From assembly GCA_041497675.1 (NCBI GenBank), contig JBGQGY010000031.1, forward strand, positions 1-30,648: a DNA stretch of 30,648 bases, given 5' to 3'. Below are positions 9,568-24,977 of the stretch, in pieces. Made by a program: the position numbers and the translations under genes. The stretch is from a bacterium (GTDB taxonomy: Bacteria > Sysuimicrobiota > Sysuimicrobiia > Sysuimicrobiales > Humicultoraceae). Under the pieces are notes generated by a model. That model made no database searches, was not told the origin of the DNA, and worked only from the letters and a program-made list of their open reading frames with translations. Positions within the stretch are counted from its first letter, which is position 1; the number at the start of each line of letters is the position of its first letter.

Positions 9568-10320
9568 GTGCCGACACCGACCCCGTCCACGCCCACTCGC
9601 CGCAGAGTCCCGGCCCGATTTGCGATCGTCATGGCCGCGCTGTGTGCGGCGGCGGCGCTGCCGCAGTCCTCGCTCTTTGCGATCGAGCGCATCGACGTCA
9701 CCGGCGCCATGACCCTGGACGGGTCGACGATCCGCACGCTCTCGGGGCTGCGGCCAGGCCAGCGGGTTTTCGCCGTTGACGCAGCCGCCGTGGCGGCGCG
9801 TCTGACCACGCATCCTCGGATCAAGACGGCCGCCGTGCGGGCGCGGCCCCCTCACGCGATGAGCATTGCCATTGTTGAACGGCGCCCGGTGATCGCTGTG
9901 GTCCTGGGCGACGAGTTTGCCCTCGTCGACCAGGAGCTCATGGTGGTGGAGGTAGGCCCAGATCCGGGCGACCTGGTCCGCGTCGTCGATCGGAGCGGTC
10001 GTTCCGGTTGGGTGCGTCCTGGAACGCGCGTCTCGTCCGACGCCGGGAAGACCGCGTTGGACGCGCTGGCCGCGCTGCCGGAAGCCCTGGCCGCGGACGT
10101 GTTCAAGGTCATCGTCGCGCCCGGCCCTGATCTCACCTTTGTCATGCGATCCGGGCTCGAGGTGCGGGCCGGAGGTCTCTCAGGTCTGTCCGATCGGCTG
10201 GCGCAGGTACCCGGGTTGCTCGCGGCGCTTCGCGCGAGGCGCCTGTCGGTAGCATCGATTGATCTGAGGTACGCCGGCTCGATTGTCGTGAAACCGGTTG
10301 CAGGAGGAGAAGCGCGGTAG
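9568..10320 (+). CDS. ftsQ: Cell division protein FtsQ/DivIB (POTRA domain)
   Basis: N-terminal hydrophobic segment, F-x-I-x-x-I-x-V-x-G POTRA start, P-x-I...V-x-x-x-x-P...I-x-I-x-ER-x-P, C-terminal IDLRY; directly before ftsA. Exact start codon uncertain. Confidence 0.85.
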   Translation: MPTPTPSTPTRRRVPARFAIVMAALCAAAALPQSSLFAIERIDVTGAMTLDGSTIRTLSGLRPGQRVFAVDAAAVAARLTTHPRIKTAAVRARPPHAMSIAIVERRPVIAVVLGDEFALVDQELMVVEVGPDPGDLVRVVDRSGRSGWVRPGTRVSSDAGKTALDALAALPEALAADVFKVIVAPGPDLTFVMRSGLEVRAGGLSGLSDRLAQVPGLLAALRARRLSVASIDLRYAGSIVVKPVAGGEAR

Positions 10321-10329
10321 GCGTGGAAT
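10303..10329 (+). promoter_or_regulatory. Putative SigH-type promoter for ftsA-ftsZ
   Basis: GGAGGAGAA-N11-GTGGAAT fits the Bacillus SigH consensus RNAGGAWWW-N11/12-RNNGAAT with one mismatch; ftsAZ has a SigH promoter in B. subtilis. Confidence 0.5.
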
Positions 10330-10333
10330 AGCG

Positions 10334-10381
10334 CACCCAGATCTAGGGGCGCACAAGACTCAACCCTACCACAGGTAGCAT
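10334..10381 (+). promoter_or_regulatory. Tandem NrdR-box-like operator upstream of ftsA
   Basis: Box 1 at 10334-10349 (cacCcAgATcTaGggg) has all six invariant positions of acaCwAtATaTwGtgt. Box 2 at 10366-10381 (ctaCcAcAggTaGcat) has 5 of 6. Offset is 32 bp. Confidence 0.6.
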
Positions 10382-11620
10382 ATGGCACGTCGGGGCCCGC
10401 TTGCGGGTCTGGACATTGGAACCACCAAGGTGTGCGCTATCGTCGGCGAGGTGGACGAAGACGGTGATGTGCACATCGTCGGCGCCGGCATCGCGCCCTC
10501 GACCGGCGTGCGCCGCGGCGTCGTCGTCGATCTGGACTCCACCGTGTCCGCGATCGAGCAGGCTGTCGAGCGCGCGGAACGCATGGCGGGCGTGAAAGTC
10601 TCAGCGGTCTATGTGGCCGTTTCAGGTGAGCACATTGCCTCTGCCGACAGCCGGGGCGTGGTGGCGGTGGCGCGGGGTGACCACGAGATCGGCGAAAGCG
10701 ACGTCGCGCGCGTGATCGACGCGGCGCGGATGTCCGCACTGCCTGCCTCGGATCGCGAGATCATCCACCTGTTGCCGCGCGACTTCGTCGTCGACGGGCA
10801 GGACGGCGTCAAGCGACCGGTCGGCATGTTCGGCACGCGGCTGGAAGTCGAAGCCCACATTGTCACGGGTGTCGCGACGGCCCTGGCCAACGTGGCCAAG
10901 TGCGCGCAGCGCGCCGGTCTCGACGTCGATGAGATGGTGCTCGAGCCGCTGGCATCAGCGGCGGCCGTGCTGACCGCGGCCGAGCGAGACCTCGGGGTCG
11001 TCGTCGCGGACCTTGGTGGCGGGACGACAAGCATCGGCATCTTCGCCAACGGCGGGCTCTGCCACGTGGGCATTTTGCCGGTCGCGGGCGCGCACCTGAC
11101 GAGCGATATCGCCGTCGGCATGCGCACGCCGATGCCCGAGGCGGAGAAACTCAAGATTCGATGGGGCGCGGCGACGCCGGCCATCGTGACCGAAGGTGAG
11201 ATGATCGAGGTGTTCAACGTCGGGGGCCGCGAACCGCGCGTGCTGCCTCGACGGTTGCTGGCCGAGTACATCGAGCCGCGTTTGGACGAGATCTTTTCGC
11301 TGATCCAGGCCGAGATCGGGCGCAGCGGATACACACACCGAGTGCCGGCCGGTATTGTGCTGACCGGCGGCACGGCGCAGCTCGAGGGGTTGGAGGAGTA
11401 CGCCGAGCGGCGGCTCGGTATGCCGGCCCGCATCGGCGCGCCGAACCATCTGTCGGGGCTGGCCGAGGCGGTGCGCAGTCCGGCGTACAGCACCGGTGTC
11501 GGGTTGGTCGTCCACGGCTCCACGGCGCGGACGCAGGTCGGGACCGTACATCGCAACGGGACGAGTTCGGTTTGGGAACGTGCCCGGGAATGGGTGAGGG
11601 AGATCCTCCAGGGGGGGTAA
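10382..11620 (+). CDS. ftsA: Cell division protein FtsA
   Basis: [38 protein letters not shown] and P-x-YSTGVGL motifs; C-terminal amphipathic helix ([13 protein letters not shown]). Confidence 0.97.
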
Positions 11621-11661
11621 CCCACATCGGACCTCGGGATCTTACATCGAGGAGGAGCACC

Positions 11662-12717
11662 ATGGCCAATGTTGAGCGTGATCTCCGTCGGTATGCCGCG
11701 ATCAAGGTGGTGGGGGTAGGAGGCGGCGGGAGCAATGCCGTCAACCGCATGATCTCGGCGGGATTGCGCGGAGTCGAATTCATCGCAATCAACACCGACG
11801 CGCAGGCGCTTGCGCTCTCGTCGGCCGACAAGAAGATCCACATTGGGGCGAAGGTGACACGGGGCTTGGGCGCCGGGGGCGATCCCAACGTCGGCCGGCA
11901 GGCGGCTGAGGAGAACCGGGACGAGCTGCGGGAAGCGCTGAGCAACGCGGACATGGTGTTCATCACCGCGGGCATGGGCGGTGGGACCGGGACCGGGGGC
12001 GCGCCGGTGATCGCCGAGATCGCGCGCGAGCACAATGCGTTGACCATCGGCGTCGTCACGAGGCCCTTTGGGTTCGAGGGCAAGCGACGCGCCGCCGCCG
12101 CGGAAGAGGGCGTCAAGAGCCTACGCCAGAAAGTGAACACGCTCATCACCATCCCCAACGACCGGCTCCTGCAGATCATCGATCGGCAGGCGACGGTCAT
12201 CGAGGCCTTCCGCACGGCCGACGACGTGCTGCGTCAGGGCGTGCAGGGCATCGCCGACCTCATCACCATTCCTGGTCTGATCAACCTCGACTTCGCGGAC
12301 GTCCGCACGATCATGACTGAAGCCGGATCGGCCCTGATCGGGATCGGCGTCGCGTCGGGCGAGGAGCGGGCGACACGGGCGGCGCAGGCGGCGATCAGCA
12401 GCCCGCTGCTGGAAACGTCGATGGACGGCGCGCGCGGGGTGCTGATCAACGTGACCGGCGGCATCGATCTGGGCCTGCTCGAGGTGAGCGAAGCGGCGCA
12501 GATCATCCGCGAGGCCGCCGACCCCGAAGCCAATATCATCTTTGGCGCCGTGATCGACGAGAAGAGCAAGGACGAAGTGCGAATTACCGTGATCGCAACC
12601 GGGTTCGACTCGGTACGCCGCGTCGAAGAGCCGGTGGCCGCGACCTCGGAGCGGCCGAAGGAGCCCGTCAGGCTCATCGACGACCTGGACATCCCGGCCT
12701 TCCTCCGCCGCCGCTAG
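11662..12717 (+). CDS. ftsZ: Cell division protein FtsZ
   Basis: RBS AGGAGG at 11650-11655 then ATG 11662 (the ORF-track start at 11572 is too long). GGGTGTG tubulin signature, NLDFADV, C-terminal DIPAFLR core. Confidence 0.98.
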
Positions 12718-12735: not shown

Positions 12736-13851
12736 TTGGAACCGTACCCATTCGCGCCCGGCGGACACGACGTCGCGGCCGAACAGGATGATCGCCTCCT
12801 CACCGCCTGGCGGCATATCCAGGCGTTGTTTCCTGGGGCCACGCCTCTGCCGGGGCCCCAGCCGATCTTCACACTGACGACCGCCGAGGGCATCCGCGAC
12901 CGCTTCGTCGAACTTCAGCGGCGTCTGGCGCCGCTGGACCTCCTCCCGCTGCTGCGGCGCCAGGACGGCCGGCCGGTCCTGATCCTCATTCCCAAACCCG
13001 CGGCGGGTCGCTGGGCGTGGCAGACGAACGCCCTGCTGTTCTTAGCCACACTCGCCACCACGTTCTACGCCGGATACGCGCAATCGGTCGCGCTGGTCCG
13101 TGACGGGTACCTGACAGATCCGATCGCCGGCGGGATGGAGTTCTCGGTGGCAGTCCTCTTCATCCTGGTGTCGCACGAGATGGGTCATAAGCTCGCGGCC
13201 GTCCGCCGCGGCATCGACGCCAGCCTTCCCTATTTCATCCCCATGATGCCGCCCGTCGGCACCATGGGCGCCGTGATTATCACGCGCGCTCCTGCGCCAA
13301 ATCGTGACAGCTTGATGGACCTCGGTGCCTCGGGACCGATCGCGGGGTTCGTGGCCGCCATTCCCGTGCTGATCTACGGTATCCTGCACTCCTTTGTGAT
13401 CCAACCCGAGCGGGTGCAGGGGCTGATCACCTTCCCCGATCCGCTGCTGATGCGTGTGCTGGCGCGGGTGCTGGTCGACGTCCCGCCCGGCCGTGATCTC
13501 CTGATGCACCCTGTGCTCTTCGCCGGGTGGATCGGTCTCTTCGTCACCAGCCTGAACCTGTTGCCGACCGGGATGCTCGATGGGGGCCACGCGGTTCGGG
13601 CCGCGCTGGGTCCGCGCGCCCACGCGCTCCTGTCGATCGTCGGGATCGCCCTGGCGGCCGTGATGGGCGCGTGGCTGATGGCGCTCTTGATGGCGCTGCT
13701 GATGCGGCGCGGGCACGTGGGCCCGTTGGACGACCTCTCGCCACTGAGCCGGTCGCGGCAACTTGTGGGGCTCGCACTGATCGTGATCTTCATCCTCAGC
13801 GCATCGGTCGTCCTGCCGTTGTCCTCACTCCGCGACCTGATCAACCGATAG
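12736..13851 (+). CDS. Site-2 protease (peptidase M50 family, EGY/SpoIVFB-like)
   Basis: HEMGH zinc motif, LPYFIP...GTMGAVI, SGPIAGF, NLLPTGMLDGGH; several TM segments. TTG start uncertain. Confidence 0.88.
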   Translation: MEPYPFAPGGHDVAAEQDDRLLTAWRHIQALFPGATPLPGPQPIFTLTTAEGIRDRFVELQRRLAPLDLLPLLRRQDGRPVLILIPKPAAGRWAWQTNALLFLATLATTFYAGYAQSVALVRDGYLTDPIAGGMEFSVAVLFILVSHEMGHKLAAVRRGIDASLPYFIPMMPPVGTMGAVIITRAPAPNRDSLMDLGASGPIAGFVAAIPVLIYGILHSFVIQPERVQGLITFPDPLLMRVLARVLVDVPPGRDLLMHPVLFAGWIGLFVTSLNLLPTGMLDGGHAVRAALGPRAHALLSIVGIALAAVMGAWLMALLMALLMRRGHVGPLDDLSPLSRSRQLVGLALIVIFILSASVVLPLSSLRDLINR

Positions 13852-13854
13852 GCC

Positions 13855-15060
13855 GTGCGCGCGCCCACGACACCGGCACACGCGAGTCGCCCGGGCCGCT
13901 GGTGGCGCGCGGTCGTGGCGGTCTTTCTCAAGGAGATGCGCGAAGCGCTCCGTGACCGGCGAACGCTGATCGCCGCGGTCGTGCTGCCCGCCGTCGTCAT
14001 GCCGGTCGTGGTGCTCCTGATGCCCGCCCTGGCAAAGCGACAAGAGACGTTCTTGCTCCAACATCCGGCGCGAATCGCCGTCGAGGGCGGAGACGCCTCC
14101 GGGCTCGCGGCCGCGGGGTTCGAAGAGCGCGTCTTCAGCCTCGTCTCGACCCCCTCACCGCGAGCCGCGCTCCGCCGCGGCGAGGTCGATGCCGTGCTGG
14201 TCGACGAAGGCCCCCAGGGGCCTCCCAGGCGGGTCCTCGTGCTCTACGACGAGACTCGTGCGGCGTCGCGCGCCGCGGTGGAGAAGGTCATCCGCACGGC
14301 CGCAAAACTGGCGTTGGCCGAGTTGCAGACCGCGGCGCGTGCCGGCGGGCTGGACCCCGAGCAGATGGTGCCGGTCATCGTCGAGCCGCGCCCCATCCTT
14401 GCGTCCAACCCCCTGGGTGGCGGCCCGCTGGCCATCGCGCTTCCGTTCTTTCTCGCCGTCTGGTTGCTCCTCGGCGGCCAGTATGCCGCGCTCGACGTCG
14501 GTGTCGGGGAGCGCGAGCGGGGGAGCCTGGACGCGCTGCTGGTGAGTCCCCCATCCCGGTCTGCGATCGTGGTGGGGAAGTTCCTGGCCGTGCTGCTGCC
14601 GGCGGTCTTCGCCGCCGTGGTCATGGTGGCGTCGAGTATCGCCTCGGCGAAGCTTGGCGCCCGCCTCCTGCCCGACCAGGCCGCCGCCGGTCTGACGGTG
14701 GGAGTGGCGGCCTGGCTGCTGGTGGTCGGGGTGGCCCTGGGCGCGCTCCTTTCGGCGGTGCAATTGCTGCTGAGCCTGGGTTCCAGGAGCCTCAGAGAGG
14801 CCCAGCAGGCGTTCACCGGGCTCTACCTCCTGGTGGCGCTGCCGATCATGCTCGTGCCGCTGTTGGGTGAGTGGGACGACCGGCCCTGGATGCCGCTGAT
14901 CCCGGTCGTCAACGCCGGTCTGGCCTACCGGGATATCCTGGCCGGCCGCGCCGTCGGGGCCCAATTGGCGGTCACTGTGGGTGTGCTCCTGGTGGCCACC
15001 CTCCCGTTCCTGGCCCTCGGGGCTCGGGTGCTGGGCAACCAGCGAGTACCGAATCGATGA
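13855..15060 (+). CDS. ABC-2 type permease, NatB-like
   Basis: FLKEMREALRDRRTL N-terminus and GERERGSLDALLVSP-x-SR...GKFL motif; one TM, an extracytoplasmic loop, then about five TMs. Confidence 0.82.
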   Translation: MRAPTTPAHASRPGRWWRAVVAVFLKEMREALRDRRTLIAAVVLPAVVMPVVVLLMPALAKRQETFLLQHPARIAVEGGDASGLAAAGFEERVFSLVSTPSPRAALRRGEVDAVLVDEGPQGPPRRVLVLYDETRAASRAAVEKVIRTAAKLALAELQTAARAGGLDPEQMVPVIVEPRPILASNPLGGGPLAIALPFFLAVWLLLGGQYAALDVGVGERERGSLDALLVSPPSRSAIVVGKFLAVLLPAVFAAVVMVASSIASAKLGARLLPDQAAAGLTVGVAAWLLVVGVALGALLSAVQLLLSLGSRSLREAQQAFTGLYLLVALPIMLVPLLGEWDDRPWMPLIPVVNAGLAYRDILAGRAVGAQLAVTVGVLLVATLPFLALGARVLGNQRVPNR

Positions 15061-15129: not shown

Positions 15130-15158
15130 TTGACACACCAGATATGGGATCCTAGAAT
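15130..15158 (+). promoter_or_regulatory. Sigma70/SigA promoter of nrdR-nrdJ
   Basis: TTGACA (15130-15135), 17 bp spacer, TAGAAT (15153-15158); 30 bp upstream of the nrdR ATG. Confidence 0.85.
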
Positions 15159-15182
15159 CGATTTTGCCTCTACCGGTGGGGT
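15135..15182 (+). promoter_or_regulatory. NrdR boxes in the nrdR-nrdJ promoter
   Basis: Box 1 at 15135-15150 (acaCcAgATaTgGgat, 6/6 invariant positions) lies in the promoter spacer. A weaker box 2 at 15167-15182 (cctCtAccggTgGggt, 4/6) is 32 bp downstream, over the ribosome-binding region. Confidence 0.75.
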
Positions 15183-15188
15183 TCCCCT

Positions 15189-15710
15189 ATGCGATGCCCT
15201 GTTTGCGGCCATGAGGAAAGCAAGGTCCTCGATTCCCGCCCCGTTCTCGACGGACGCGCCATCAGGCGCCGGCGTGAGTGCCTGGAATGCGAGCGCCGAT
15301 TCACCACGTACGAGCGCACGGACATGGCCCCGCTGATGGTCGTCAAGCGCGATGGGCGGCGCGAACCTTTTGACCGCGCGAAGGTGCAGGCCGGCGTGGT
15401 GCGCGCCTGCGGGAAGCGCCCGGTCTCGATGGACGCCGTCGACGCCCTGGTCGACGAGGTCGAGCGGGAGATTCGCCAGCAGGGCACGGTGGAGATTGCC
15501 TCGGCCGCGATCGGTGATTTCGTCATGGAGCGACTGCGGGGGCTTGATGACGTGGCGTACGTGCGGTTCGCCTCCGAGCACCGGCGCTTTCAGGACGTCG
15601 ATTCGATTGCGGAGGAAATAGAAACCCTCAAGGAACGTAGGCGCCGCGAGGACGCGCTCCGCGATCAAGTACCGCTGATCACGCTTCCCGATCCACACCG
15701 CAAGCGATAA
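15189..15710 (+). CDS. nrdR: Transcriptional repressor NrdR
   Basis: MRCPVC...KVLDSR...IRRRRECLECERRFTTYE zinc ribbon; ATP cone VVKRDGRREPFDR; DDVAYVRFAS. Confidence 0.97.
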   Translation: MRCPVCGHEESKVLDSRPVLDGRAIRRRRECLECERRFTTYERTDMAPLMVVKRDGRREPFDRAKVQAGVVRACGKRPVSMDAVDALVDEVEREIRQQGTVEIASAAIGDFVMERLRGLDDVAYVRFASEHRRFQDVDSIAEEIETLKERRRREDALRDQVPLITLPDPHRKR

Positions 15711-15744
15711 ACAGAACACACAGATTGAACCGGGGGTGACGTCC

Positions 15745-18237
15745 ATGGATGCCGCATCGTCCTCTTCGACCCACTCGCAGACCCCACGCCGCGAACCTGT
15801 GGGGTATGCCGCGTCATCGGACCTCTCGCCGGAGACGCTCGCCGCTTTTGCCGGCGACGAACTCCGGGCGCGCGTCTTCCACGACAAGTACGCGCTGCGG
15901 GATCGGGACGGCACCGTGCTGGAGCGCACGCCGCAAGAGATGTGGCAGCGCATCGCCCGGGAACTGGCGTCGGTGGAGACAACGCCGGAGAAGCGGGATG
16001 AGTGGACGCAGAAGTTTGGCTGGCTGCTCGAGGACTTTCGGTTCATCCCCGGGGGCCGCATCATGCACGCGGCGGGGAACAGCCGGCGCGTTACCGCGCT
16101 CAACTGCTACGTCCTGCCGATCCGGGATGATTCGATCGAATCGATCTTCGAGTGGATGAAGGAGGCCGCCCGCACGTACAGCCTCGGCGGGGGCGTCGGC
16201 ACCGACATCTCGATCCTTCGGCCGCGGGGCGCGCCGGTGAACAACGCGGCGCGCAGCAGCACCGGGTCGGTCTCGTTCATGGAGCTCTTCTCACTCACCA
16301 CGGGTACCATCGGACAATCGGGCCGCCGCGGCGCGCTGATGATCACCATCGCCGACAACCATCCCGACTTGTTGGACTTCATCAAAGTCAAGCGGAACCT
16401 CGACAAGGTACGTTACGCCAACATCAGCATCCGGATCTCTGACGCGTTCATGCGCGCGGTCGAAGAAGACGGCGTCTGGGATCTGGCTTTTGAGAACGAT
16501 CGAGCGCAGTACCGGAAGTCCGTGCGCGCGCGAGACGTGTGGCGAGAAATCATCAAGGGCGCCCGCGACCACGCGGAGCCCGGCGTGATCTTTTGGGACA
16601 CGGTCAAGCGCTGGTCGACGTCGGAATACGACGGGATGGGTGTCGTCACGACGAACCCATGCAGCGAAATCCCGCTCGAGCCCTACGGCTGTTGCTGTCT
16701 GGGCAACGTCAACCTGGCGTGCTTTGTGCATGACGAGTTCACGTCACAGGCCCGCGTCGACTGGGAAGGGCTCGAGCGCGCGCTGCGCTACGCGACGCGT
16801 TTCCTCGACAACGTCCTTGACTACAACGCCGACAAGCATCCGCTGCCGCAGCAGCGTGAGGCCAGCCTCTTTTCACGCCGGATCGGCGTGGGGTTTACGG
16901 CGCTCGGCGACATGCTCATCAAGTTGCGCCTGAAGTACGATACCGACCAGGCGGTCGCGTTCGTCGACGGGCTGTACGATCGCATCAAGAACATCGTCTA
17001 CGACGAGAGCGTCAACCTGGCGGCCGAAAAATCGACGTTCCCCGGCTACGACGCGCGGCAGCACCTGGCTTCACCCTTCATCCAGACGCTGTCGCCGAGG
17101 ATCCGCGAGCGCGTCGAGCGCGGCGGCCTCCGCAACGTCGCGCTGCTCACCGTCCCGCCTGTGGGCAGCGGGGCGGCCCTGGCCGGCGTGACCAGCGGCG
17201 TCGAGCCGATCTTCGATATCTCGTATATCCGCCGATCGGAGTCCCTCTCGAAAGAGGTCTTCACCGTGTACCACACGCTCGTGAGAGACTACATGCAGCG
17301 CTGCGGCATCGAGCGTGAGCAAGACCTGCCGGAGTACTTCGTAACCGCCCACCAGATCCAACCGGAGATGCGGGTCCGCATGCAGGCGGCGATCCAGAAG
17401 CACATCGATCACTCGATCTCCTCGACGGTCAACCTGGCAGAAGACACGCCGCCCGAAGAGGTGGAGCGCATCTACGTCCAGGCGTGGAAGATGGGGTGCA
17501 AGGGGATCACCGTCTATCGCGAGGGGAGCCGCGAAGGGGTCCTGATTACCGAGGCGCGGGCCAAAGGCCAGTCGGCGAAGGGACAGACGGCGCAAACGAC
17601 GACACCGGCGACCGCCGCGCCGGCGACGCCCGCGGCTCCGGTCCGCGTCATCCCGCGCCAGCGTCCAAAGGTGACGGCCGGTCGCACCGAACGCATCGAG
17701 ACGCCGCGCGGCCGGGTCTACGTCGTGATCAATGAGGACGAACTGGGGATCTGCGAGGTCTTCGTGCATTCGCTCGACGTCGAGGCCGAGGCGATCGGTC
17801 GTCTGGCCTCGCTCTCCCTGCGGGGTGGTCTGGATCCGCGCGACGTGATCGAGCAGTTGTGGCGGGTACAGAGCAAAGAGCTCGCGTTCGATCGGTCTAC
17901 CGACGGCACCATCGTGCGCGTGACCACGATCGCGCAGGCGGTCGCGCTCGCGCTGGGTCGGGTGCTCTACGGGGACACGTTCCGCCCGGACAAGGCCTTC
18001 CCGAGAGCCGACGCGCTGCCCGAGCCACGACCGCGGCCACGCCAGGAGGCGCTTCGCTTTTCCCCACCGCCGGAGGCCAACAGTGGGAACGGCGGCCCCG
18101 CGCCCGAGCCGCAGGCGACCCGCGGTGTTGCCGACATCGCGCTGGAGTTCATCGGCATCTGCCCCGATTGTGGGTCGTCGCTGGTACACGAGAACGGCTG
18201 CGCCACGTGCCGACAATGCGGGTACTCGAGGTGTTGA
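15745..18237 (+). CDS. nrdJ: Adenosylcobalamin-dependent (class II) ribonucleotide reductase
   Basis: RBS GGGGGTG then ATG 15745. FIPGGRI, LNCYV, GGGVG, RRGALM, TNPCSE (thiyl Cys). KGITVYR lacks the class I YY pair. C-terminal TSCPD-like domain and CPDCG...GCATCRQCGYSRC ribbon. No beta subunit nearby. Confidence 0.92.
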   Translation: MDAASSSSTHSQTPRREPVGYAASSDLSPETLAAFAGDELRARVFHDKYALRDRDGTVLERTPQEMWQRIARELASVETTPEKRDEWTQKFGWLLEDFRFIPGGRIMHAAGNSRRVTALNCYVLPIRDDSIESIFEWMKEAARTYSLGGGVGTDISILRPRGAPVNNAARSSTGSVSFMELFSLTTGTIGQSGRRGALMITIADNHPDLLDFIKVKRNLDKVRYANISIRISDAFMRAVEEDGVWDLAFENDRAQYRKSVRARDVWREIIKGARDHAEPGVIFWDTVKRWSTSEYDGMGVVTTNPCSEIPLEPYGCCCLGNVNLACFVHDEFTSQARVDWEGLERALRYATRFLDNVLDYNADKHPLPQQREASLFSRRIGVGFTALGDMLIKLRLKYDTDQAVAFVDGLYDRIKNIVYDESVNLAAEKSTFPGYDARQHLASPFIQTLSPRIRERVERGGLRNVALLTVPPVGSGAALAGVTSGVEPIFDISYIRRSESLSKEVFTVYHTLVRDYMQRCGIEREQDLPEYFVTAHQIQPEMRVRMQAAIQKHIDHSISSTVNLAEDTPPEEVERIYVQAWKMGCKGITVYREGSREGVLITEARAKGQSAKGQTAQTTTPATAAPATPAAPVRVIPRQRPKVTAGRTERIETPRGRVYVVINEDELGICEVFVHSLDVEAEAIGRLASLSLRGGLDPRDVIEQLWRVQSKELAFDRSTDGTIVRVTTIAQAVALALGRVLYGDTFRPDKAFPRADALPEPRPRPRQEALRFSPPPEANSGNGGPAPEPQATRGVADIALEFIGICPDCGSSLVHENGCATCRQCGYSRC

Positions 18238-18911: not shown

Positions 18912-19874
18912 ATGACAGGTGTGCGGTACGGTGTGGTTTTCGTTGTCGCTCTCGTGCTCGCGTTCGGCGCCGGTGGGTGGTATCCGCACCCGGCGGCCGG
19001 CGAGACGAGCCTGGTGCTGGCGTTCGTGCCGTCGCAGGATGCGCGTCGCGTGCTGGACACCGGAAGCACGCTCGGAAGGATGTTGGAAGTCGCCACGGGG
19101 TACAAGGTCCGGGCCGAGGTGCCGACCAGCTACGCCGCCACGATCGAAGCGATGTGCGCTGGTCGTGTAGATGTCGGCTTTCTGGCGACGTTTGCCTACG
19201 TACTTGCCCACCAGCGCTGTGGTGTCGACGTGGGGCTGGTGAGCATCCGTCAGGACAAGCCATTCTACGTGTCTCAGATTCTCTACAGGGCCGAGTTGAA
19301 TGCCAAGACCCTGAACGATCTGCGCGGCAAGCGGTTTGCCTTCGTCGACGCCGCTTCGGCCTCCGGATACCTCTTCCCAGCAGCGCTCCTGAAGAAGAAC
19401 GGTATCGACCCGGACCGGTTCTTCAGCCAGGTCGTCTTCGCAGGTGGCCATGACAAGGTGGTACTGGCCATTTACCAGGGCTCGGTCGACGCGGGGGCTA
19501 CTTTCGGCGATCCAGACAATCCTGCCTTCGAGGCGCGCGACCGCGTCGTCAGACAGTACCCAGACGTCAGGGACAAGGTCAAGGTTCTCATGTACACTGA
19601 TCCCATCCCGAACGACACGGTCTCCTTCCGCCGTGGTCTTCCCGACGAAGTCCGTGAGAAGACGATCAAGGCGCTGTTCAACATCGCCAAGACTGCGCCA
19701 GGCAAGGAGACCATCTACGCACTCTACCAGCATGAGGGCTATGCTGACTTGGCGGCGCTTAAGACCACTTACAAGCTCTCCCAGCTCAGGTCGTTTGATG
19801 AATACTTCCAGTCGGTACGGGATGCCGCCAAGATGCTCGGTCTCAATCTTGAGGAGCTGATCCGACCCCGCTAG
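18912..19874 (+). CDS. phnD: Phosphate/phosphite/phosphonate ABC substrate-binding protein
   Basis: RBS GGAGGTG; signal peptide; SYAATIEAM, LRGKRFAFVDAASASGYLFP, AGGHD, PIPND motifs. Confidence 0.88.
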   Translation: MTGVRYGVVFVVALVLAFGAGGWYPHPAAGETSLVLAFVPSQDARRVLDTGSTLGRMLEVATGYKVRAEVPTSYAATIEAMCAGRVDVGFLATFAYVLAHQRCGVDVGLVSIRQDKPFYVSQILYRAELNAKTLNDLRGKRFAFVDAASASGYLFPAALLKKNGIDPDRFFSQVVFAGGHDKVVLAIYQGSVDAGATFGDPDNPAFEARDRVVRQYPDVRDKVKVLMYTDPIPNDTVSFRRGLPDEVREKTIKALFNIAKTAPGKETIYALYQHEGYADLAALKTTYKLSQLRSFDEYFQSVRDAAKMLGLNLEELIRPR

Positions 19875-19898
19875 CGTGGCCGGGGTCGTAGCGAAGTA

Positions 19899-19936
19899 AC
19901 AACGAGGGAGAGGATGATGAGCCTCTCCCTCGTTGT
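19899..19936 (+). terminator. Perfect 15-bp hairpin between phnD and phnC (attenuator or mRNA stabiliser)
   Basis: ACAACGAGGGAGAGG (19899-19913), 8-nt loop, CCTCTCCCTCGTTGT (19922-19936); only a broken U-tract follows. Confidence 0.65.
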
Positions 19937-19957
19937 CTGTCGTCTCAAGGAGAGGCT

Positions 19958-20728
19958 ATGCCGGGAGCCGCGGTTCGCATCGAGCATCTTTCGAAGACGT
20001 ATCCAGACGGTACGCGGGCCCTGAAGGATATCTCGTTTTCTGTGCGGCCCGGAGAGTTCCTGATCATCATCGGGTTGTCCGGCTCCGGGAAATCCACCTT
20101 AATGCGGTGCATCAACCGGCTCATCGAGCCGACGAGTGGCAAGGTCTACATCGACGACGTCGACGTGACGGCGATGGCGCCTGACGATCTGCGCCGGCTG
20201 CGCCGGCAAATCGGCATGATCTTCCAGCACTTCAATCTGATCAAGCGGTCGTCGGTCATCACGAACGTGCTGGCCGGCCGGCTCGGGTACGTGCCGTCGT
20301 CGTGGGCGCTGACCAATCACTGGCCGCGCGAACTACGCGAGACGGCGGCAAGACACCTGGCCACTGTTGGCATCCCCGAGAAGGCGCATACCCGCGCCGA
20401 CCAACTATCTGGTGGGCAGCAGCAGCGTGTCGGTATTGCGCGCGCCTTGATGCAGGATCCGAAGGTGATTCTGGCAGACGAACCGGTCGCCAGCCTGGAT
20501 CCCGCGACGTCTCACTCGGTGCTGCAGTACATTGAGGCCCTCAACCGTCGTGACGGTGTCACGGTGATGTGCAGCCTACACTTTCTGAGCCTGGCGCGCC
20601 GGTACGGGACCCGGCTCATCGCGCTGAAGGCCGGCGAGATCGTCTTCGAAGGGGAGCCATCGGAGGTTGACGAGCGGCGCTTCAAGGAGATCTTCGGCGA
20701 AGAGGCCGTCGAGGTGGAGATTCGCTAG
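19958..20728 (+). CDS. phnC: Phosphonate ABC transporter ATPase
   Basis: [36 protein letters not shown] and [12 protein letters not shown] motifs. Confidence 0.93.
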
Positions 20729-20763
20729 GCCCTACCGCGCCGGGGCAGAGTGGAGGGGTAAGG

Positions 20764-21930
20764 ATGGGGCAGAACGCCACGGCACGCATGCCGCAGGTCC
20801 CTGAGGTGCCACGCCCAGGAACGGGGACGCTGAGGCTCATTCTCTGGTTGGTGGCGCTCGTGGCGATCTACGCCTACGGGTGGCGGGTCACCCAGATCAA
20901 CCTCATCGAGATGGCGACGAAGTGGCACCTGGCCAAGCCGTTGCTGAGCGACCTACTGCATCCTGATCTGCTAGACCGGTACCCGTTGCGCCAGATAGCG
21001 GAGGCTGGGATCGGCCTGGACGGTACGCCCCCGCCGCCGTCGGCGCCGGCCGCCGGTCCAGGCCGGGTGAGTCTGAGCACGACGTCTACGAAGATTGGCG
21101 GGCAGATCACGGTGACGGGAGAAGGCTTCGCGCCCTCTCGCCCGGTCGAACTCATCTGGCGGGACCAGGCCGGTGCGACGGCGTCGATTGCGAAGTTGAC
21201 GACCGACACGTCGGGGCGCTTCCAGACCACAATCACCGTCCCCAACGTCATTGGGACGGAGCACGCATTGGTTGCGCAGGTGACCCTTGAGGGTAGCCGT
21301 CTCGGCCCGAGCGATGCGATGAAACGCACAGCCTTCCGCATGGTCGAGACCGTGTTTCTGGCCCTGATGGGCACCACGCTGGCAATCGTCGTGGCGGTTC
21401 CGCTGTCGTTCCTGGGGGCCAAGAACCTGATGTCCCGGAGCCGTCTCAGTCTTTGGATCTACTATGCCGTCAGGACCGCGATGAACATCGCGCGGTCGGT
21501 CGAACCGCTGATCATCGCAACGGTCTTCGCCGTCTGGGTTGGGATCGGTCCGTTCGCCGGCGTGCTGGCACTGGCCCTGCATTCGATCGCCTCGCTGGGC
21601 AAGCTGTACTCCGAGCAGATCGAGTCGATCGACGCAGGGCCGATCGAGGCGATCACGGCCACCGGGGCGTCGATGTTCCAAATCGTCCGCTACGCGGTCG
21701 TTCCTCAGATCGTTCCGCCGTTTATTGCGTTTACGATCTACCGGTGGGACATCAACGTGCGCATGTCGACGATCATCGGTTTCGTCGGCGGCGGCGGGCT
21801 GGGGTTTCTGCTCCTCCAGTACATCCAGTTGCTCCTCTGGCAGCAGGCCTCGACCGCAATCCTGGGGATTGTCTTGATCGTGGCCGCGATGGACGTTCTC
21901 AGCTCGAAGGTGCGCGAGAAGGTCGTGTGA
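20764..21930 (+). CDS. phnE: Phosphonate ABC permease PhnE with inserted extracytoplasmic Ig-like domain
   Basis: C-terminal ETVFLALMGT, GPFAGVLAL, GKLYSEQIESIDAGPIEA, YRWDINVR and GGGGLG motifs; extra beta-rich segment after the first TM. Confidence 0.88.
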   Translation: MGQNATARMPQVPEVPRPGTGTLRLILWLVALVAIYAYGWRVTQINLIEMATKWHLAKPLLSDLLHPDLLDRYPLRQIAEAGIGLDGTPPPPSAPAAGPGRVSLSTTSTKIGGQITVTGEGFAPSRPVELIWRDQAGATASIAKLTTDTSGRFQTTITVPNVIGTEHALVAQVTLEGSRLGPSDAMKRTAFRMVETVFLALMGTTLAIVVAVPLSFLGAKNLMSRSRLSLWIYYAVRTAMNIARSVEPLIIATVFAVWVGIGPFAGVLALALHSIASLGKLYSEQIESIDAGPIEAITATGASMFQIVRYAVVPQIVPPFIAFTIYRWDINVRMSTIIGFVGGGGLGFLLLQYIQLLLWQQASTAILGIVLIVAAMDVLSSKVREKVV

Positions 21931-22736
21931 TTCCCGCACTGCCCGATGGCTGGCGCTGGGAGGCCCGCGACGGGCTTCGCCTCCTCGTCTCCACGCGGTT
22001 TGTGGACCTGCACGTCGTCCACGCGTTTACCACCCGTGTCGGGGGGACGAGTCATCCCCCGTTCGATGCCCTGAACCTCAGCCGCGGCGTGGGTGACACG
22101 CCGGCCGCGGTCGCGGCGAACCGGGCCCGCGTGCTCGAAGCACTTGGGCACGTCCCCGATGATCACGTGGACGCCGCGCAGGTGCACGGCGCTGAGGTCG
22201 CGGAGGCCGCCGCCGCGCATCGCGGAACGACGATCGACAGAGCAGACGGGCTGGTGGCACGCGACCCCAACGTCGTGCTCGCGGTCCATTGCGCGGACTG
22301 CGTGCCGCTGCTGTTTGTCGACGCGCGGCGAGGGGCGGTGGCCGCCCTTCATACCGGGTGGCGAGGGACGGCGGCCGGCGCGGCACAGGCGGCGGTCAAA
22401 GCGTTGCGCGACATGTACGGCACCGACCCTCGCGATCTGATCGCCGCCATCGGCCCAGCGATCGGCCCGTGTTGCTATGAGGTCGACGCACCGGTGTACG
22501 ATCGATTTGCGCCGTGGCCGTGGCGCGACCGCGTGTTTGCGCCGGCGCGGCCGGGGCACTGGCGTCTCGATCTCTGGGCGGCCAACCGGTGCCAGTTGGA
22601 AGCGGCGGGGCTTTCGGCCGGCGCGATCGTGAGCGTCGATCTGTGCACGGCGGACCACCGCGCGTTGTTTTACTCCCACCGTCGCGACGGCAAGACCGGC
22701 CATATGGCGGCGCTGATCGCCTCGCCGGCGCGCTGA
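21927..22736 (+). CDS. pgeF: Peptidoglycan editing factor / purine nucleoside phosphorylase PgeF (YfiH/YlmD)
   Basis: GTG 21927 overlaps the phnE stop. HAFTTRVGG, LNL, QVHG, ADG, ADCVP, HTGWRG, IGPAIGPCCYEV and FYSHRR motifs. Confidence 0.93.
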   Translation: MIPALPDGWRWEARDGLRLLVSTRFVDLHVVHAFTTRVGGTSHPPFDALNLSRGVGDTPAAVAANRARVLEALGHVPDDHVDAAQVHGAEVAEAAAAHRGTTIDRADGLVARDPNVVLAVHCADCVPLLFVDARRGAVAALHTGWRGTAAGAAQAAVKALRDMYGTDPRDLIAAIGPAIGPCCYEVDAPVYDRFAPWPWRDRVFAPARPGHWRLDLWAANRCQLEAAGLSAGAIVSVDLCTADHRALFYSHRRDGKTGHMAALIASPAR

Positions 22737-22746
22737 ACACCCCTCG

Positions 22747-22774
22747 CAAGGGTTTGATGGTTTCCAAACCGAAT
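22747..22774 (+). promoter_or_regulatory. Second putative SigH-type promoter (for yggS-sepF)
   Basis: CAAGGGTTT-N12-ACCGAAT in an AT-richer gap between pgeF and yggS; two mismatches to consensus. Confidence 0.35.
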
Positions 22775-22786
22775 ACCGGGTCTGGC

Positions 22787-23470
22787 GTGTCGGGCGTGGA
22801 AGAACGTCTCGAGGTGGTTCGGCGGCGCATCGCCCGCGCTGCCGCCGGGGCCGGCCGTGATCCGGCCTCGATCACGCTGATCGGCGCCACGAAGAGCGTC
22901 GACGTTGATCGGGTGCGCGCGGCGTTTCACGCGGGACTGCGGGACTTCGGCGAGAACCGCGTGCAGGAGGCGTTGCCGAAGATCGCCGCTGTCGGCGCGG
23001 GGCCGCGATGGCACCTCATCGGGCACTTGCAGCGTAACAAGGCGCGGCAGGCGGTCGGCGCGTTTGGCGTCATCCATTCGATCGACACGGTCGCGCTCGC
23101 CGAGACCCTGGACCGCGCGGCGCGTCTAACCGGCCGGCGGGTCTCGGTGCTGATCGAAGTGAACGTCGGTGGTGAGGCGACCAAGTTCGGTGTCGCCCCA
23201 GAGGCGATGGAGGGTCTGGTCGGGGCGCTTGGTGCCTGCGAGTGGGTGCAGCCGGTCGGGTTGATGACGGTCGCGCCCCCGGCCCAAGATCCGCAGGTCG
23301 TGCGTCCCGTGTTTCGGACCCTGCGCGAGCTGCGCGACCGATTGCAGCGTCAGCTGGGCGGCACGTTTCGAGAGTTGTCGATGGGCATGTCGCACGACTT
23401 TGAGGTTGCGGTCGAAGAAGGCGCTACAATGGTGAGAATCGGCCGCGCGATCTTTGGCGAGCGCGTGTGA
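22787..23470 (+). CDS. yggS: PLP homeostasis protein YggS/YlmE
   Basis: ATKS, FGENRVQE, WHLIGHLQRNK, HSID, GLMT and LSMGMSHDFEVAVEEGATMVRIGRAIFG motifs. GTG 22787 gives a typical N-terminus; ATG 22757 is an alternative start. Confidence 0.93.
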   Translation: MSGVEERLEVVRRRIARAAAGAGRDPASITLIGATKSVDVDRVRAAFHAGLRDFGENRVQEALPKIAAVGAGPRWHLIGHLQRNKARQAVGAFGVIHSIDTVALAETLDRAARLTGRRVSVLIEVNVGGEATKFGVAPEAMEGLVGALGACEWVQPVGLMTVAPPAQDPQVVRPVFRTLRELRDRLQRQLGGTFRELSMGMSHDFEVAVEEGATMVRIGRAIFGERV

Positions 23471-23525
23471 CGACGGCCACGGGAGAGGCCACGTCCAGGG
23501 GGGAGGCGCCAGCGGGAGGTGTGAG

Positions 23526-23921
23526 GTGAGCGCGATGCAGCGATTGTGGTCGTTTTTGGGTTTCACCGAGGAAGAGACGGACGGCGTGACGGAGGACGAG
23601 CCGCGGCGTCGCCGGACGCCGGTGTTCAGCCTCCACACGAATCGGGCCATGGAGATCGTCGTCCTCGAGCCGCACAGCTTCGATGAGGCGCGCGCTGGGG
23701 CCGATCACCTGAAGTCCCGGCGTCCCGTCATCGTCAATCTCAAGGACACGGATCGGGACCTGGCCAAGCGGATCGTCGATTTTACGTGTGGGGTCACCTA
23801 CGCGGTTGACGGCCAGATGCAGCGGATCGGCGATGAAATCTTCTTGTTTACGCCGAGCACCGTGACCGTGCTGGCCGAGGCGACGCAGGAAGGCCCGCGC
23901 GCGCTCTTCCCGATGGTCTGA
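23526..23921 (+). CDS. sepF: Cell division protein SepF
   Basis: RBS GGAGGT; N-terminal amphipathic RLWSFLGF; EPHSFDEA, VIVNL, AKRIVDF-x-x-G, IFLFTP motifs. Start is GTG 23526 or ATG 23535. Confidence 0.93.
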   Translation: MSAMQRLWSFLGFTEEETDGVTEDEPRRRRTPVFSLHTNRAMEIVVLEPHSFDEARAGADHLKSRRPVIVNLKDTDRDLAKRIVDFTCGVTYAVDGQMQRIGDEIFLFTPSTVTVLAEATQEGPRALFPMV

Positions 23922-23936
23922 GACCGCTGGGCCGGC

Positions 23937-24977
23937 ATGAGAACCGTCTGGTTCGAGAACGGCGCTGTCTGTCTCGTCGACCAGACCCGGCTGCCGCACG
24001 AGACCGTCGTCGTCGCCTGCCAGACGACCGACGCGCTCGCCGAAGCCATCCGCGTCCTCCGTATCCGTGGGGCGCCGGCCATCGGCGTCGCGGCTGCCTA
24101 CGGTATCGCCCAGGCCGCCGCGCAGGCGTCATCCCTCCCGGCGGAGCGCTCTCTCGCCGCTGTCCAATCGGCGGCGAGCTTGCTCGCCGCCACGCGTCCC
24201 ACAGCAGTCAACCTCCGTTGGGCTGTGGACCGGATGCTGGCCCTGGCCCGGCGGATCGCCGATCCCGTCGATCGCGCTCGGCAGCTCGCCGCGGAAGCCG
24301 ACGCTATCGCCGCCGAGGATCAGGCCGCGAACCTGGCGATCGGGCGGTTCGGTGCCGAACAGATCCGGCCCGGTGAACGCGTCCTGACCTACTGCCACAC
24401 CGGAGGGCTCGCCACCGCCGGCTACGGTACCGCGTTTGGCATCCTGAGGGCCGCGCACGAGGCCGCCAAGGGCATTCGGGTCATCGTGTGCGAAACACGC
24501 CCGGTGCTCCAGGGCGCCCGTCTGACGGCTTGGGAACTGAAGACGCTGGGGATCCCGTTCACCCTGATCACCGACAATGCCGCGGGCGCCCTGATGTCCC
24601 GTGGTGAGGTCGACCGCGTGATCGTCGGGGCCGACCGGATTGCCGCCAACGGCGACGTCGCCAACAAGATCGGCACCTATACACTGGCGGTCCTGGCCGG
24701 GGCGCACGGGATTCCGTTTCTGGTGGCCGCGCCCACGTCGACCATCGATCTGCAGATGCCGGCCGGCGCCGCGATTCCCATCGAGGAGCGCGCGGCTGCG
24801 GAAGTCACACACGCCGCCGGACGGCAAATCGCCCCGGACGGCGTGACTGTTCGTAATCCCGCCTTCGACATCACCCCGGCGCGTCTGATTACCGCCATCG
24901 TGACCGAGGCGGGCGTCGCACATCCGCCCTACGAGCGCCGTCTGGCCGAGATGGTCGCCGCGGGCGTGAAGCGATAG
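23937..24977 (+). CDS. mtnA: S-methyl-5-thioribose-1-phosphate isomerase
   Basis: DQTRLP, IRGAPAIG, RPTAVNL, LT-x-C, ETRP-x-x-QGARLTAWEL, GADRIAANGDVANKIGTY and NPAFDITP motifs. Confidence 0.93.
   Translation: MRTVWFENGAVCLVDQTRLPHETVVVACQTTDALAEAIRVLRIRGAPAIGVAAAYGIAQAAAQASSLPAERSLAAVQSAASLLAATRPTAVNLRWAVDRMLALARRIADPVDRARQLAAEADAIAAEDQAANLAIGRFGAEQIRPGERVLTYCHTGGLATAGYGTAFGILRAAHEAAKGIRVIVCETRPVLQGARLTAWELKTLGIPFTLITDNAAGALMSRGEVDRVIVGADRIAANGDVANKIGTYTLAVLAGAHGIPFLVAAPTSTIDLQMPAGAAIPIEERAAAEVTHAAGRQIAPDGVTVRNPAFDITPARLITAIVTEAGVAHPPYERRLAEMVAAGVKR

Follow-up and report, generated by a model that had tools for sequence, protein, structure and literature searches.

A predicted tandem NrdR operator over a SigH-type promoter upstream of the division genes ftsA-ftsZ in Sysuimicrobiota

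Gene order and the box pair upstream of ftsA

The window, by which we mean the whole analyzed stretch of 30,648 nucleotides (contig JBGQGY010000031.1 of assembly GCA_041497675.1), contains a dcw cluster with Mur ligases, mraY, ftsW, murG, murB, ftsQ, ftsA and ftsZ, all on the plus strand and followed on the same strand by genes for an M50 peptidase and an ABC-2 permease, nrdR and the class II gene nrdJ. The ORF assigned to ftsQ (9568..10320, +) matches NF004039 (FtsQ, E 7.5e-16) under the curated cut-off and occupies the position of ftsQ in the dcw cluster. The ftsA gene (10382..11620, +) was identified by TIGR01174 (439.9 bits, cut-off 175.85) and the ftsZ ORF (11572..12717, +) by TIGR00065 (437.9 bits, cut-off 295.2), with a match that begins at residue 40; the true start of ftsZ is probably located about 100 nt inside the ORF. 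The genes for the M50 peptidase (12736-13851, +; PF02163) and the ABC-2 permease (13855-15060, +; PF12679) form a co-oriented bridge from ftsZ to nrdR (12736..15060), and this order is the same in lineages with and without the boxes described below. The nrdR gene (15189..15710, +) encodes a Zn ribbon and an ATP cone (TIGR00244 above cut-off; PF22811, PF03477), and nrdJ (15736..18237, +) encodes a class II, B12-dependent ribonucleotide reductase (TIGR02504 above cut-off), which is the sole ribonucleotide reductase (RNR) found in the 98.6%-complete genome; neither NrdD nor a class I small subunit was found there. The mraZ gene is located on a separate contig in the window's genome; in relatives such as G023, it shares a contig with ftsA. 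A phosphonate-type ABC transporter (phnD, phnC, phnE; 18912-24977) is situated between nrdJ and pgeF-yggS-sepF-mtnA, within the distal division block.

An earlier note, made from the letters of the window, had described two NrdR-box-like 16-mers in the gap between ftsQ and ftsA, and the layout holds: the gap is 61 bp long, with ftsQ ending at 10320 and the ATG of ftsA at 10382, and the 16-mers start 32 bp apart at 10334 and 10366, so that the second ends at 10381, at the ftsA ATG. Box 1 (10334..10349, not assigned to a strand) is palindromic, scores 15.0 bits and matches 6/6 core positions, whereas box 2 (10366..10381, likewise without strand) scores 9.9 bits and matches 5/6. The core C-n-A-n-AT-n-T-n-G, which we take to be that of the NrdR box, was recovered afterwards from the boxes of relatives. 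The same arrangement recurs, as the note had also described, in front of nrdR-nrdJ, where an operator at 15130..15182 (+), which served as the internal reference, contains boxes at 15135-15150 and 15167-15182. With 15.8 and 10.0 bits these are comparable to the ftsA boxes, and the first of them falls within a sigma-70-type promoter (15130-15158, 11/12 promoter matches), in the spacer that separates its -35 and -10 hexamers.

For scoring, we used a palindromic, genus-weighted matrix trained on 52 nrdR-upstream pairs from relatives (54 regions outside the window's genus, of which 2 were dropped for more than 2 core mismatches), with which the whole 3.97-Mb genome was scanned for pairs at 31/32 bp. 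The counts of pairs upstream of nrdR itself (52/57 and 55/57) overlap the training set and are not counted as evidence. In the genome-wide ranking that the note had proposed, the ftsA pair is fourth with 24.9 bits and outranks the background. The other pairs among the top five precede a TIGR00375-like PHP gene (29.0 bits), thyX (28.3 bits), nrdR-nrdJ (25.8 bits, rank 3) and mraZ (24.1 bits); the thyX and TIGR00375 profiles score under their cut-offs, and PF02511 passes. In total, 5 pairs of at least 24 bits were found in the real genome, whereas 20 third-order Markov replicates gave on average 0.05 for every 4 Mb, with a maximum of 1, and no pair of at least 24 bits was found in the genome at 21 control spacings. 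A chance or coding origin of the ftsA pair is ruled out by the genome rank, the Markov null and the control spacings. The single-box ranks are weak for the second box of both operators (305 for ftsA, 285 for nrdR). The pairs at ranks 7 and 8 are located inside ORFs and were treated as background.

The ftsA pair thus has the 16-bp palindrome of the lineage's NrdR box and the 31-32 bp spacing of tandem NrdR operators, but the first genes behind it are ftsA-ftsZ instead of an RNR operon. We consider binding of NrdR at 10334-10381 highly probable.

Conservation in Sysuimicrobiota and the SigH-type promoter

We compared the upstream regions of ftsA across the phylum Sysuimicrobiota, which consists of one order and whose rows fall into lineages f1-f7, f1 being the clade of the window. 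In a first set, scored at 31/32 bp and at least 17 bits, a pair was identified in 31/57 ftsA-upstream regions, and none was found at these spacings in the control regions upstream of ftsZ (0/54), ftsQ (0/31, with 3 short regions dropped) or nrdJ (0/45). The set was then enlarged by 19 of 26 further genomes, with 33 bp also allowed, which gave 77 rows. The conservation that the earlier note had asked about is found in 43 of these: 23/30 in f1, 19/19 main copies in f2 and 1/1 in f6. The pair is absent from 7/30 f1 rows and was found in 0/26 rows of f3, f4, f5 and f7, even though NrdR and the same gene order are present there. The spacing is 32 bp in 32 of the 43 rows, 31 bp in 10 and 33 bp in 1, and the core columns of box 1 are 94-100% conserved, as compared to 31-64% for the spacer columns (43 rows, 16 genera). 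The pairs in f2 are the strongest and near-perfect (mean 16.8 and 14.7 bits), and in 5/5 f2 genomes no 32-bp pair other than that of ftsA is free of mismatches, with 0 matches to a reversed-pattern control. A second, divergent copy of ftsA-ftsZ in G061 (contig C143), which is a paralog or contamination, encodes an FtsA that is 49% identical and has neither boxes nor promoter motif.

These row counts are not independent. On a quick FtsA tree the box label needs 3 changes, so that the ftsA pair represents one to three evolutionary events, with one origin possible, and the pattern is one of deep conservation, not of many separate events. Likewise, a search of 185,579 species genomes with a promoter-plus-pair pattern gave 47 matches, of which 30 are directly upstream of ftsA, and all 30 precede an FtsA that is 63-98% identical to that of the window. 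Genera among the matches are placed in Sysuimicrobiota, formerly CSP1-3, by PMC11604079.

A refinement absent from the earlier note is that the ftsA promoter appears to be of the SigH type. The motif at 10303..10329 (+) consists of AGGA (10305-10308), 17 nt and GAAT (10326-10329), which we take to be the SigH consensus (AGGA, about 17 nt, GAAT); its -35 element is contained in the final codons of ftsQ, and the transcription start is predicted near 10334-10337. The motif was found in 40/43 box-positive and 26/34 box-negative ftsA-upstream rows (66/77 in total) and also precedes mraZ in many genomes. With a matrix built from the ftsA and mraZ regions of relatives, the ftsA promoter is the top genome-wide match, a result that is partly circular. 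SigH is encoded in the window's genome (TIGR02859, 350.7 bits, cut-off 294.8). Three further SigH-type candidates were identified in this genome (C21:31779 on the minus strand, C11:14166 and C11:10084 on the plus strand), two of them in front of unannotated ORFs that are membrane- or lipoprotein-like; together with ftsA and mraZ, these candidates may form a small SigH regulon.

The position of the pair relative to the promoter is fixed, whereas its position relative to the gene is not. Box 1 begins 3-4 nt past the conserved -10-like element in 38/43 rows (4 nt in the window). The interval between box 2 and the start codon, in contrast, can be anything from -1 to 79 nt, which ties the operator to the promoter. 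If transcription starts where it is predicted to, box 1 would overlap the start site. In f1, the interval from the end of box 2 to the start codon is -1 to 2 nt and columns 9-10 of the box are G and G in 23/23 rows, whereas in f2 it is 6-79 nt and column 9 has T, the consensus letter, at 100% (genus-weighted). The presence of GG at the center of box 2 in f1, and the return of T in f2 away from the start codon, point to dual use with the ribosome-binding site, and AGGT at 10373-10376 probably doubles as such a site. This reading of AGGT is based on the anti-SD sequence that we assume; the 16S tail, searched for as a check of the anti-SD, was not found in the assembly.

These data bear on whether the 16-mers belong to NrdR at all. 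The pair might serve another regulator, be it MraZ, WhiA or some further factor, or it might result from the constraints that promoter function and ribosome binding impose. Box 2 is weak on its own and overlaps the likely ribosome-binding site, and the region belongs to the division operon in which MraZ acts. However, a matrix made from nrdR promoters only finds the ftsA pair, the spacing is 31-33 bp in 43/43 rows (a range that was selected for, with 32 bp in most of them) and the control spacings are empty. Moreover, box 2 in f2 has the consensus and lies far from the start codon, and the promoter motif persists without boxes in those 26/34 rows. We therefore regard an origin of the pair outside the NrdR system as very improbable.

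Other paired boxes and the target of the ftsA operator

We also searched for paired boxes elsewhere in the genomes of the phylum. A pair upstream of mraZ was identified in 17/26 genomes with an ftsA pair (C180:4591-4638 in the window's genome), as compared to 0/19 of the others. It is located about 100-145 nt upstream of the SigH-type motif, and its second box is often weak; no promoter that overlaps the mraZ pair was identified. The gene for a long ThyX has a pair in 24/26 genomes (C4:63371-63418 in the window's genome, where a 9-mer that we take to be DnaA-box-like overlaps box 2), and a different, short ThyX has one in G040. Among five genomes of box-negative lineages, scanned at 32-bp spacing only, pairs were found at thyA in G018 and G037 and at a second RNR in G045, so that paired boxes precede three different thymidylate synthases across the phylum. 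The gene for the alpha subunit of DNA polymerase III, dnaE, is directly preceded by pairs in G037 and G045, both of which belong to f5 and are without an ftsA pair. The top-ranked pair in the window's genome (C12:17715-17762) precedes the TIGR00375-like PHP-type gene and was found in 9/30 genomes examined (of 55), which hints at a role of this gene in DNA or nucleotide metabolism. Across these genomes, the paired motif goes along with dNTP genes.

Since the gene order ftsA-ftsZ-M50-permease-nrdR-nrdJ is kept both with and without the pair, read-through from the ftsA promoter into nrdR-nrdJ is a fair rival for what is selected. According to this explanation NrdR does have operators here, but selection acts on nrdR-nrdJ: every promoter that reads into the co-oriented mraZ...ftsA-ftsZ-M50-permease-nrdR-nrdJ stretch must close if NrdR is to silence the sole RNR, with ftsAZ as a passenger. 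Among the top five pairs, three (those of mraZ, ftsA and nrdR) head units of the mraZ-to-nrdJ cluster. In f1, to which the window belongs, only 1/21 box-positive genomes has a terminator-like element behind ftsZ and the other 20 show none, so that transcripts could run on to nrdJ. A hairpin at 12804-12825 was rejected as a terminator, since the M50 ORF encloses it and it is not conserved in the relative from the genus that was checked. Box-bearing genomes in which nrdR-nrdJ is away from ftsZ were also looked for, and none was found among those with enough contig.

The situation in f2 is different. Here, the best pairs occur together with a G+C hairpin and T-rich tail, at most about 100 nt away from the stop codon of ftsZ, in 15/18 genomes, as compared to 3/15 in f4 and 2/7 in f5 (all predicted terminators; 7/77 rows were without enough sequence for this survey). 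The combination of a terminator-like hairpin with a near-perfect pair argues that ftsAZ itself is the target, and not only the downstream nrdJ. Box-negative lineages have the same gene order, mostly without such terminators, and yet they have no pair. Furthermore, a separate promoter and pair serve nrdR 4.8 kb downstream, and nrdJ is located 5.4 kb downstream of the ftsA operator, behind its own promoter. We consider it rather unlikely that nrdR-nrdJ alone is the selected target, and even if it were, ftsAZ would still be co-repressed.

To place the pair in a wider context, we scored samples from two other phyla, with the limitation that the Sysuimicrobiota-trained matrix may miss divergent boxes there. 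No pair was found upstream of ftsA in 29 scored loci from Bacillota (30 loci from 34 matching genomes, 1 dropped as truncated), and 3/69 loci from Chloroflexota had one (70 of 78 matching genomes taken, 1 dropped), with 0 in the first 29. The regions upstream of ftsZ had a pair in 0/69 Chloroflexota and 0/30 Bacillota loci. The Chloroflexota sample led to a second lineage, the relatives of G096 (one of the three genomes with a pair), in which the pair is present in 23/30 loci examined (of 40). Their FtsA proteins are 38-46% identical to that of the window and no SigH-type motif is present, and the different promoter suggests an independent gain. In three genomes inspected from this lineage, nrdR is located 32-100 nt behind the ftsZ match and has no pair of its own, as would be expected if nrdR were the target.

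The NrdR protein and a model for gated division

NrdR is encoded by a single gene in the window's genome and retains the DNA-specificity residues D15 and R17 and the RRRR motif (alignments to PDB 7p37 and 9fvr), as defined in PMC9110341. In contrast to the DNA-reading part, the ATP cone deviates at the outer-site Val/Tyr that discriminates ATP from dATP (V127/Y128 in S. coelicolor): Glu130-His131 (15576-15581 of the window) are found where most NrdRs have Val-Tyr. Glu-His is present in 24/31 f1 and 15/15 readable f2 NrdRs, whereas f3 and f5 have Glu-Tyr and f4, f6 and f7 have Val-Tyr. Among 136 readable sequences from 150 representative homologs, the second position is Tyr in 130, His in 4 and Phe in 2, and Glu occurs at the preceding position in 0. 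An ATP cone with Glu-His represents a naturally occurring variation on the known ATP/dATP switch. We rejected Glu-His as a marker for the ftsA operator, since the two do not co-vary: the box-bearing genera g4 (6/7) and g7 have Glu-Tyr, G038 has Val-Tyr, and a box-negative f1 subclade has Glu-His.

A His at the position of the discriminating Tyr lowers the claim of canonical sensing, but not the claim of binding, and nucleotide sensing by this NrdR is a matter of inference. NrdR may bind at ftsA without reading the ATP/dATP ratio as the Streptomyces protein does, being more constitutive or differently gated, with ftsAZ controlled through the level of NrdR or by another nucleotide. The frequency of Glu-His in f1 and f2, and the absence of the preceding Glu from the representatives, are in line with this, as is the Y131A variant of E. 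coli NrdR, which is described as having lost nucleotide-driven oligomerisation while keeping repression in vivo (bioRxiv 2025.03.28.645925). Against this stand the lack of any tracking between Glu-His and the ftsA operator, the Val-Tyr found in 3/3 NrdRs of the second lineage, and a regulon that is still centered on dNTP enzymes. Altogether, we find such an uncoupling from the ATP/dATP ratio improbable.

Our preferred reading, which we hold to be probable, is that 10334-10381 is a tandem NrdR operator over a SigH-type ftsAZ promoter and that the division genes are a selected, nucleotide-gated target of the regulon. It is drawn from sequence comparison, namely from the box consensus, the three-turn spacing, the conservation, the fixed promoter distance, the DNA-reading NrdR and the sister pairs. 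The proposal of the earlier note that NrdR may co-regulate ftsAZ with nrdJ is supported by the genome rank and the conservation upstream of ftsA. In S. coelicolor, a tetramer loaded with dATP/ATP or dATP/ADP binds two boxes about three turns apart and represses as dATP accumulates with low DNA synthesis (PMC9110341). By analogy, an NrdR tetramer would cover the predicted start site and the leader/ribosome-binding region of ftsA, and SigH-driven transcription of ftsAZ would behave as an AND gate, open while active SigH coincides with the consumption of dNTPs and closed once replication idles or energy runs low. The supply of FtsA and FtsZ would rise together with nrdJ and thyX. Because NrdR represses when dATP accumulates, the division genes would be coupled to active replication and not blocked by dNTP scarcity; a shortage of dNTPs would derepress ftsAZ, so that the circuit would not be a shortage checkpoint. 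Given that ftsA-ftsZ is located upstream of nrdR-nrdJ, a likely origin would be capture, in which operators arose on promoters reading into nrdR-nrdJ and were then kept for division control.

As compared to the RNR operons described in PMC9110341 and bioRxiv 2025.03.28.645925 (nrdRJ and nrdAB of S. coelicolor, PDB 7P3F; nrdAB, nrdHIEF and nrdDG of E. coli; nrdAB, nrdJab and nrdDG of P. aeruginosa), the ftsA pair has the same 16-bp palindrome, conserved C/G pairs and 31-32 bp spacing, and from the predicted start site it would overlap the core promoter as those operators do. It differs in its target, ftsA-ftsZ, in the SigH-type promoter, in the placement of box 2 over the ribosome-binding region in f1 and in the His of NrdR at the switch Tyr. 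Non-RNR targets have been predicted previously, with Shewanella dnaA and the topA gene of Pseudomonas (Rodionov and Gelfand, 2005, via bioRxiv 2025.03.28.645925), and these resemble ftsA in that an NrdR box precedes a non-RNR gene of the chromosome cycle. In the account of that preprint, however, boxes occur singly at non-RNR targets and topA showed no response when nrdR was lost; box pairs together with derepression are seen solely at RNR operons in E. coli and P. aeruginosa, and for these two species repression through paired boxes is proposed to be limited to RNR operons. The ftsA operator, in contrast, is paired, correctly spaced, kept over 16 genera and placed before division genes.

Parallels also exist on the side of the division genes. 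In B. subtilis, a SigH-dependent promoter site at ftsAZ is described to raise ftsZ transcription in early sporulation (bioRxiv 2025.04.25.650602), which resembles the window in that a SigH-type motif precedes ftsA and SigH is encoded; the Bacillota sample, which does not include B. subtilis itself, differs in that 29/29 scored genomes are without an NrdR pair upstream of ftsA. In Streptomyces venezuelae, WhiA binds nrdR and ftsW (PMC3781837), so that one regulator links division genes with dNTP supply, as NrdR may do here. WhiA, however, is a developmental regulator above nrdR, whereas here NrdR itself would act on division promoters. Repression of division by NrdR in sporulating Clostridium is put forward in PMC6362236 as speculation from gene position alone, and in PMC4898720 FtsZ appears only within an interaction network. 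Our literature search, the scope of which excluded RegPrecise, Rodionov and Gelfand (2005) and the bioRxiv supplements, retrieved no description of NrdR boxes at fts or mraZ genes. In these terms, the ftsA pair is an operator of a type already known, at a class of target for which we found no description.

More broadly, and more tentatively, NrdR may have become a cell-cycle regulator both in Sysuimicrobiota and, through a separate gain, in one or more lineages of another phylum. It would co-control RNR, thymidylate synthase, dnaE in some lineages and the mraZ and ftsA entry points, and gate SigH-driven division on active DNA synthesis. How bacteria match the supply of division proteins to DNA replication is a long-standing question, and such a regulator would provide a direct metabolite-sensing link from replication to divisome transcription without SOS, DnaA or CtrA, perhaps with an ATP cone that Glu-His has retuned. 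The literature describes NrdR as RNR-specific, and an operator at ftsA-ftsZ that is conserved and has the right spacing would contradict the restriction of paired boxes to RNR operons as a general rule. The proposed circuit would comprise 50 bp, one protein and one metabolite, and is testable in vitro and in B. subtilis with no need to culture the bacterium itself. The ftsA operator may also bear on how slow-growing soil and sediment bacteria cease division.

Finally, a few sites outside the set of genes discussed above were observed. The pair at rank 6 in the window's genome (C15:3852-3898) and another in G012 are each followed by an unannotated gene of the lipoprotein-like kind, the two genes being similar, and in the window's genome this site is divergent with a SLH/SPOR/NAGPA gene. 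A strong single box (C6:47293-47308, 15.7 bits) is located just upstream of purD; its partner at +33 is very weak. In G007, an NrdR-like 32-bp pair is present in three identical copies, of which one is located directly before a DUF772/DDE transposase gene (L443:1501-2675) and the other two (L440, L445) at contig ends; an insertion sequence may thus carry an NrdR operator in this genome.
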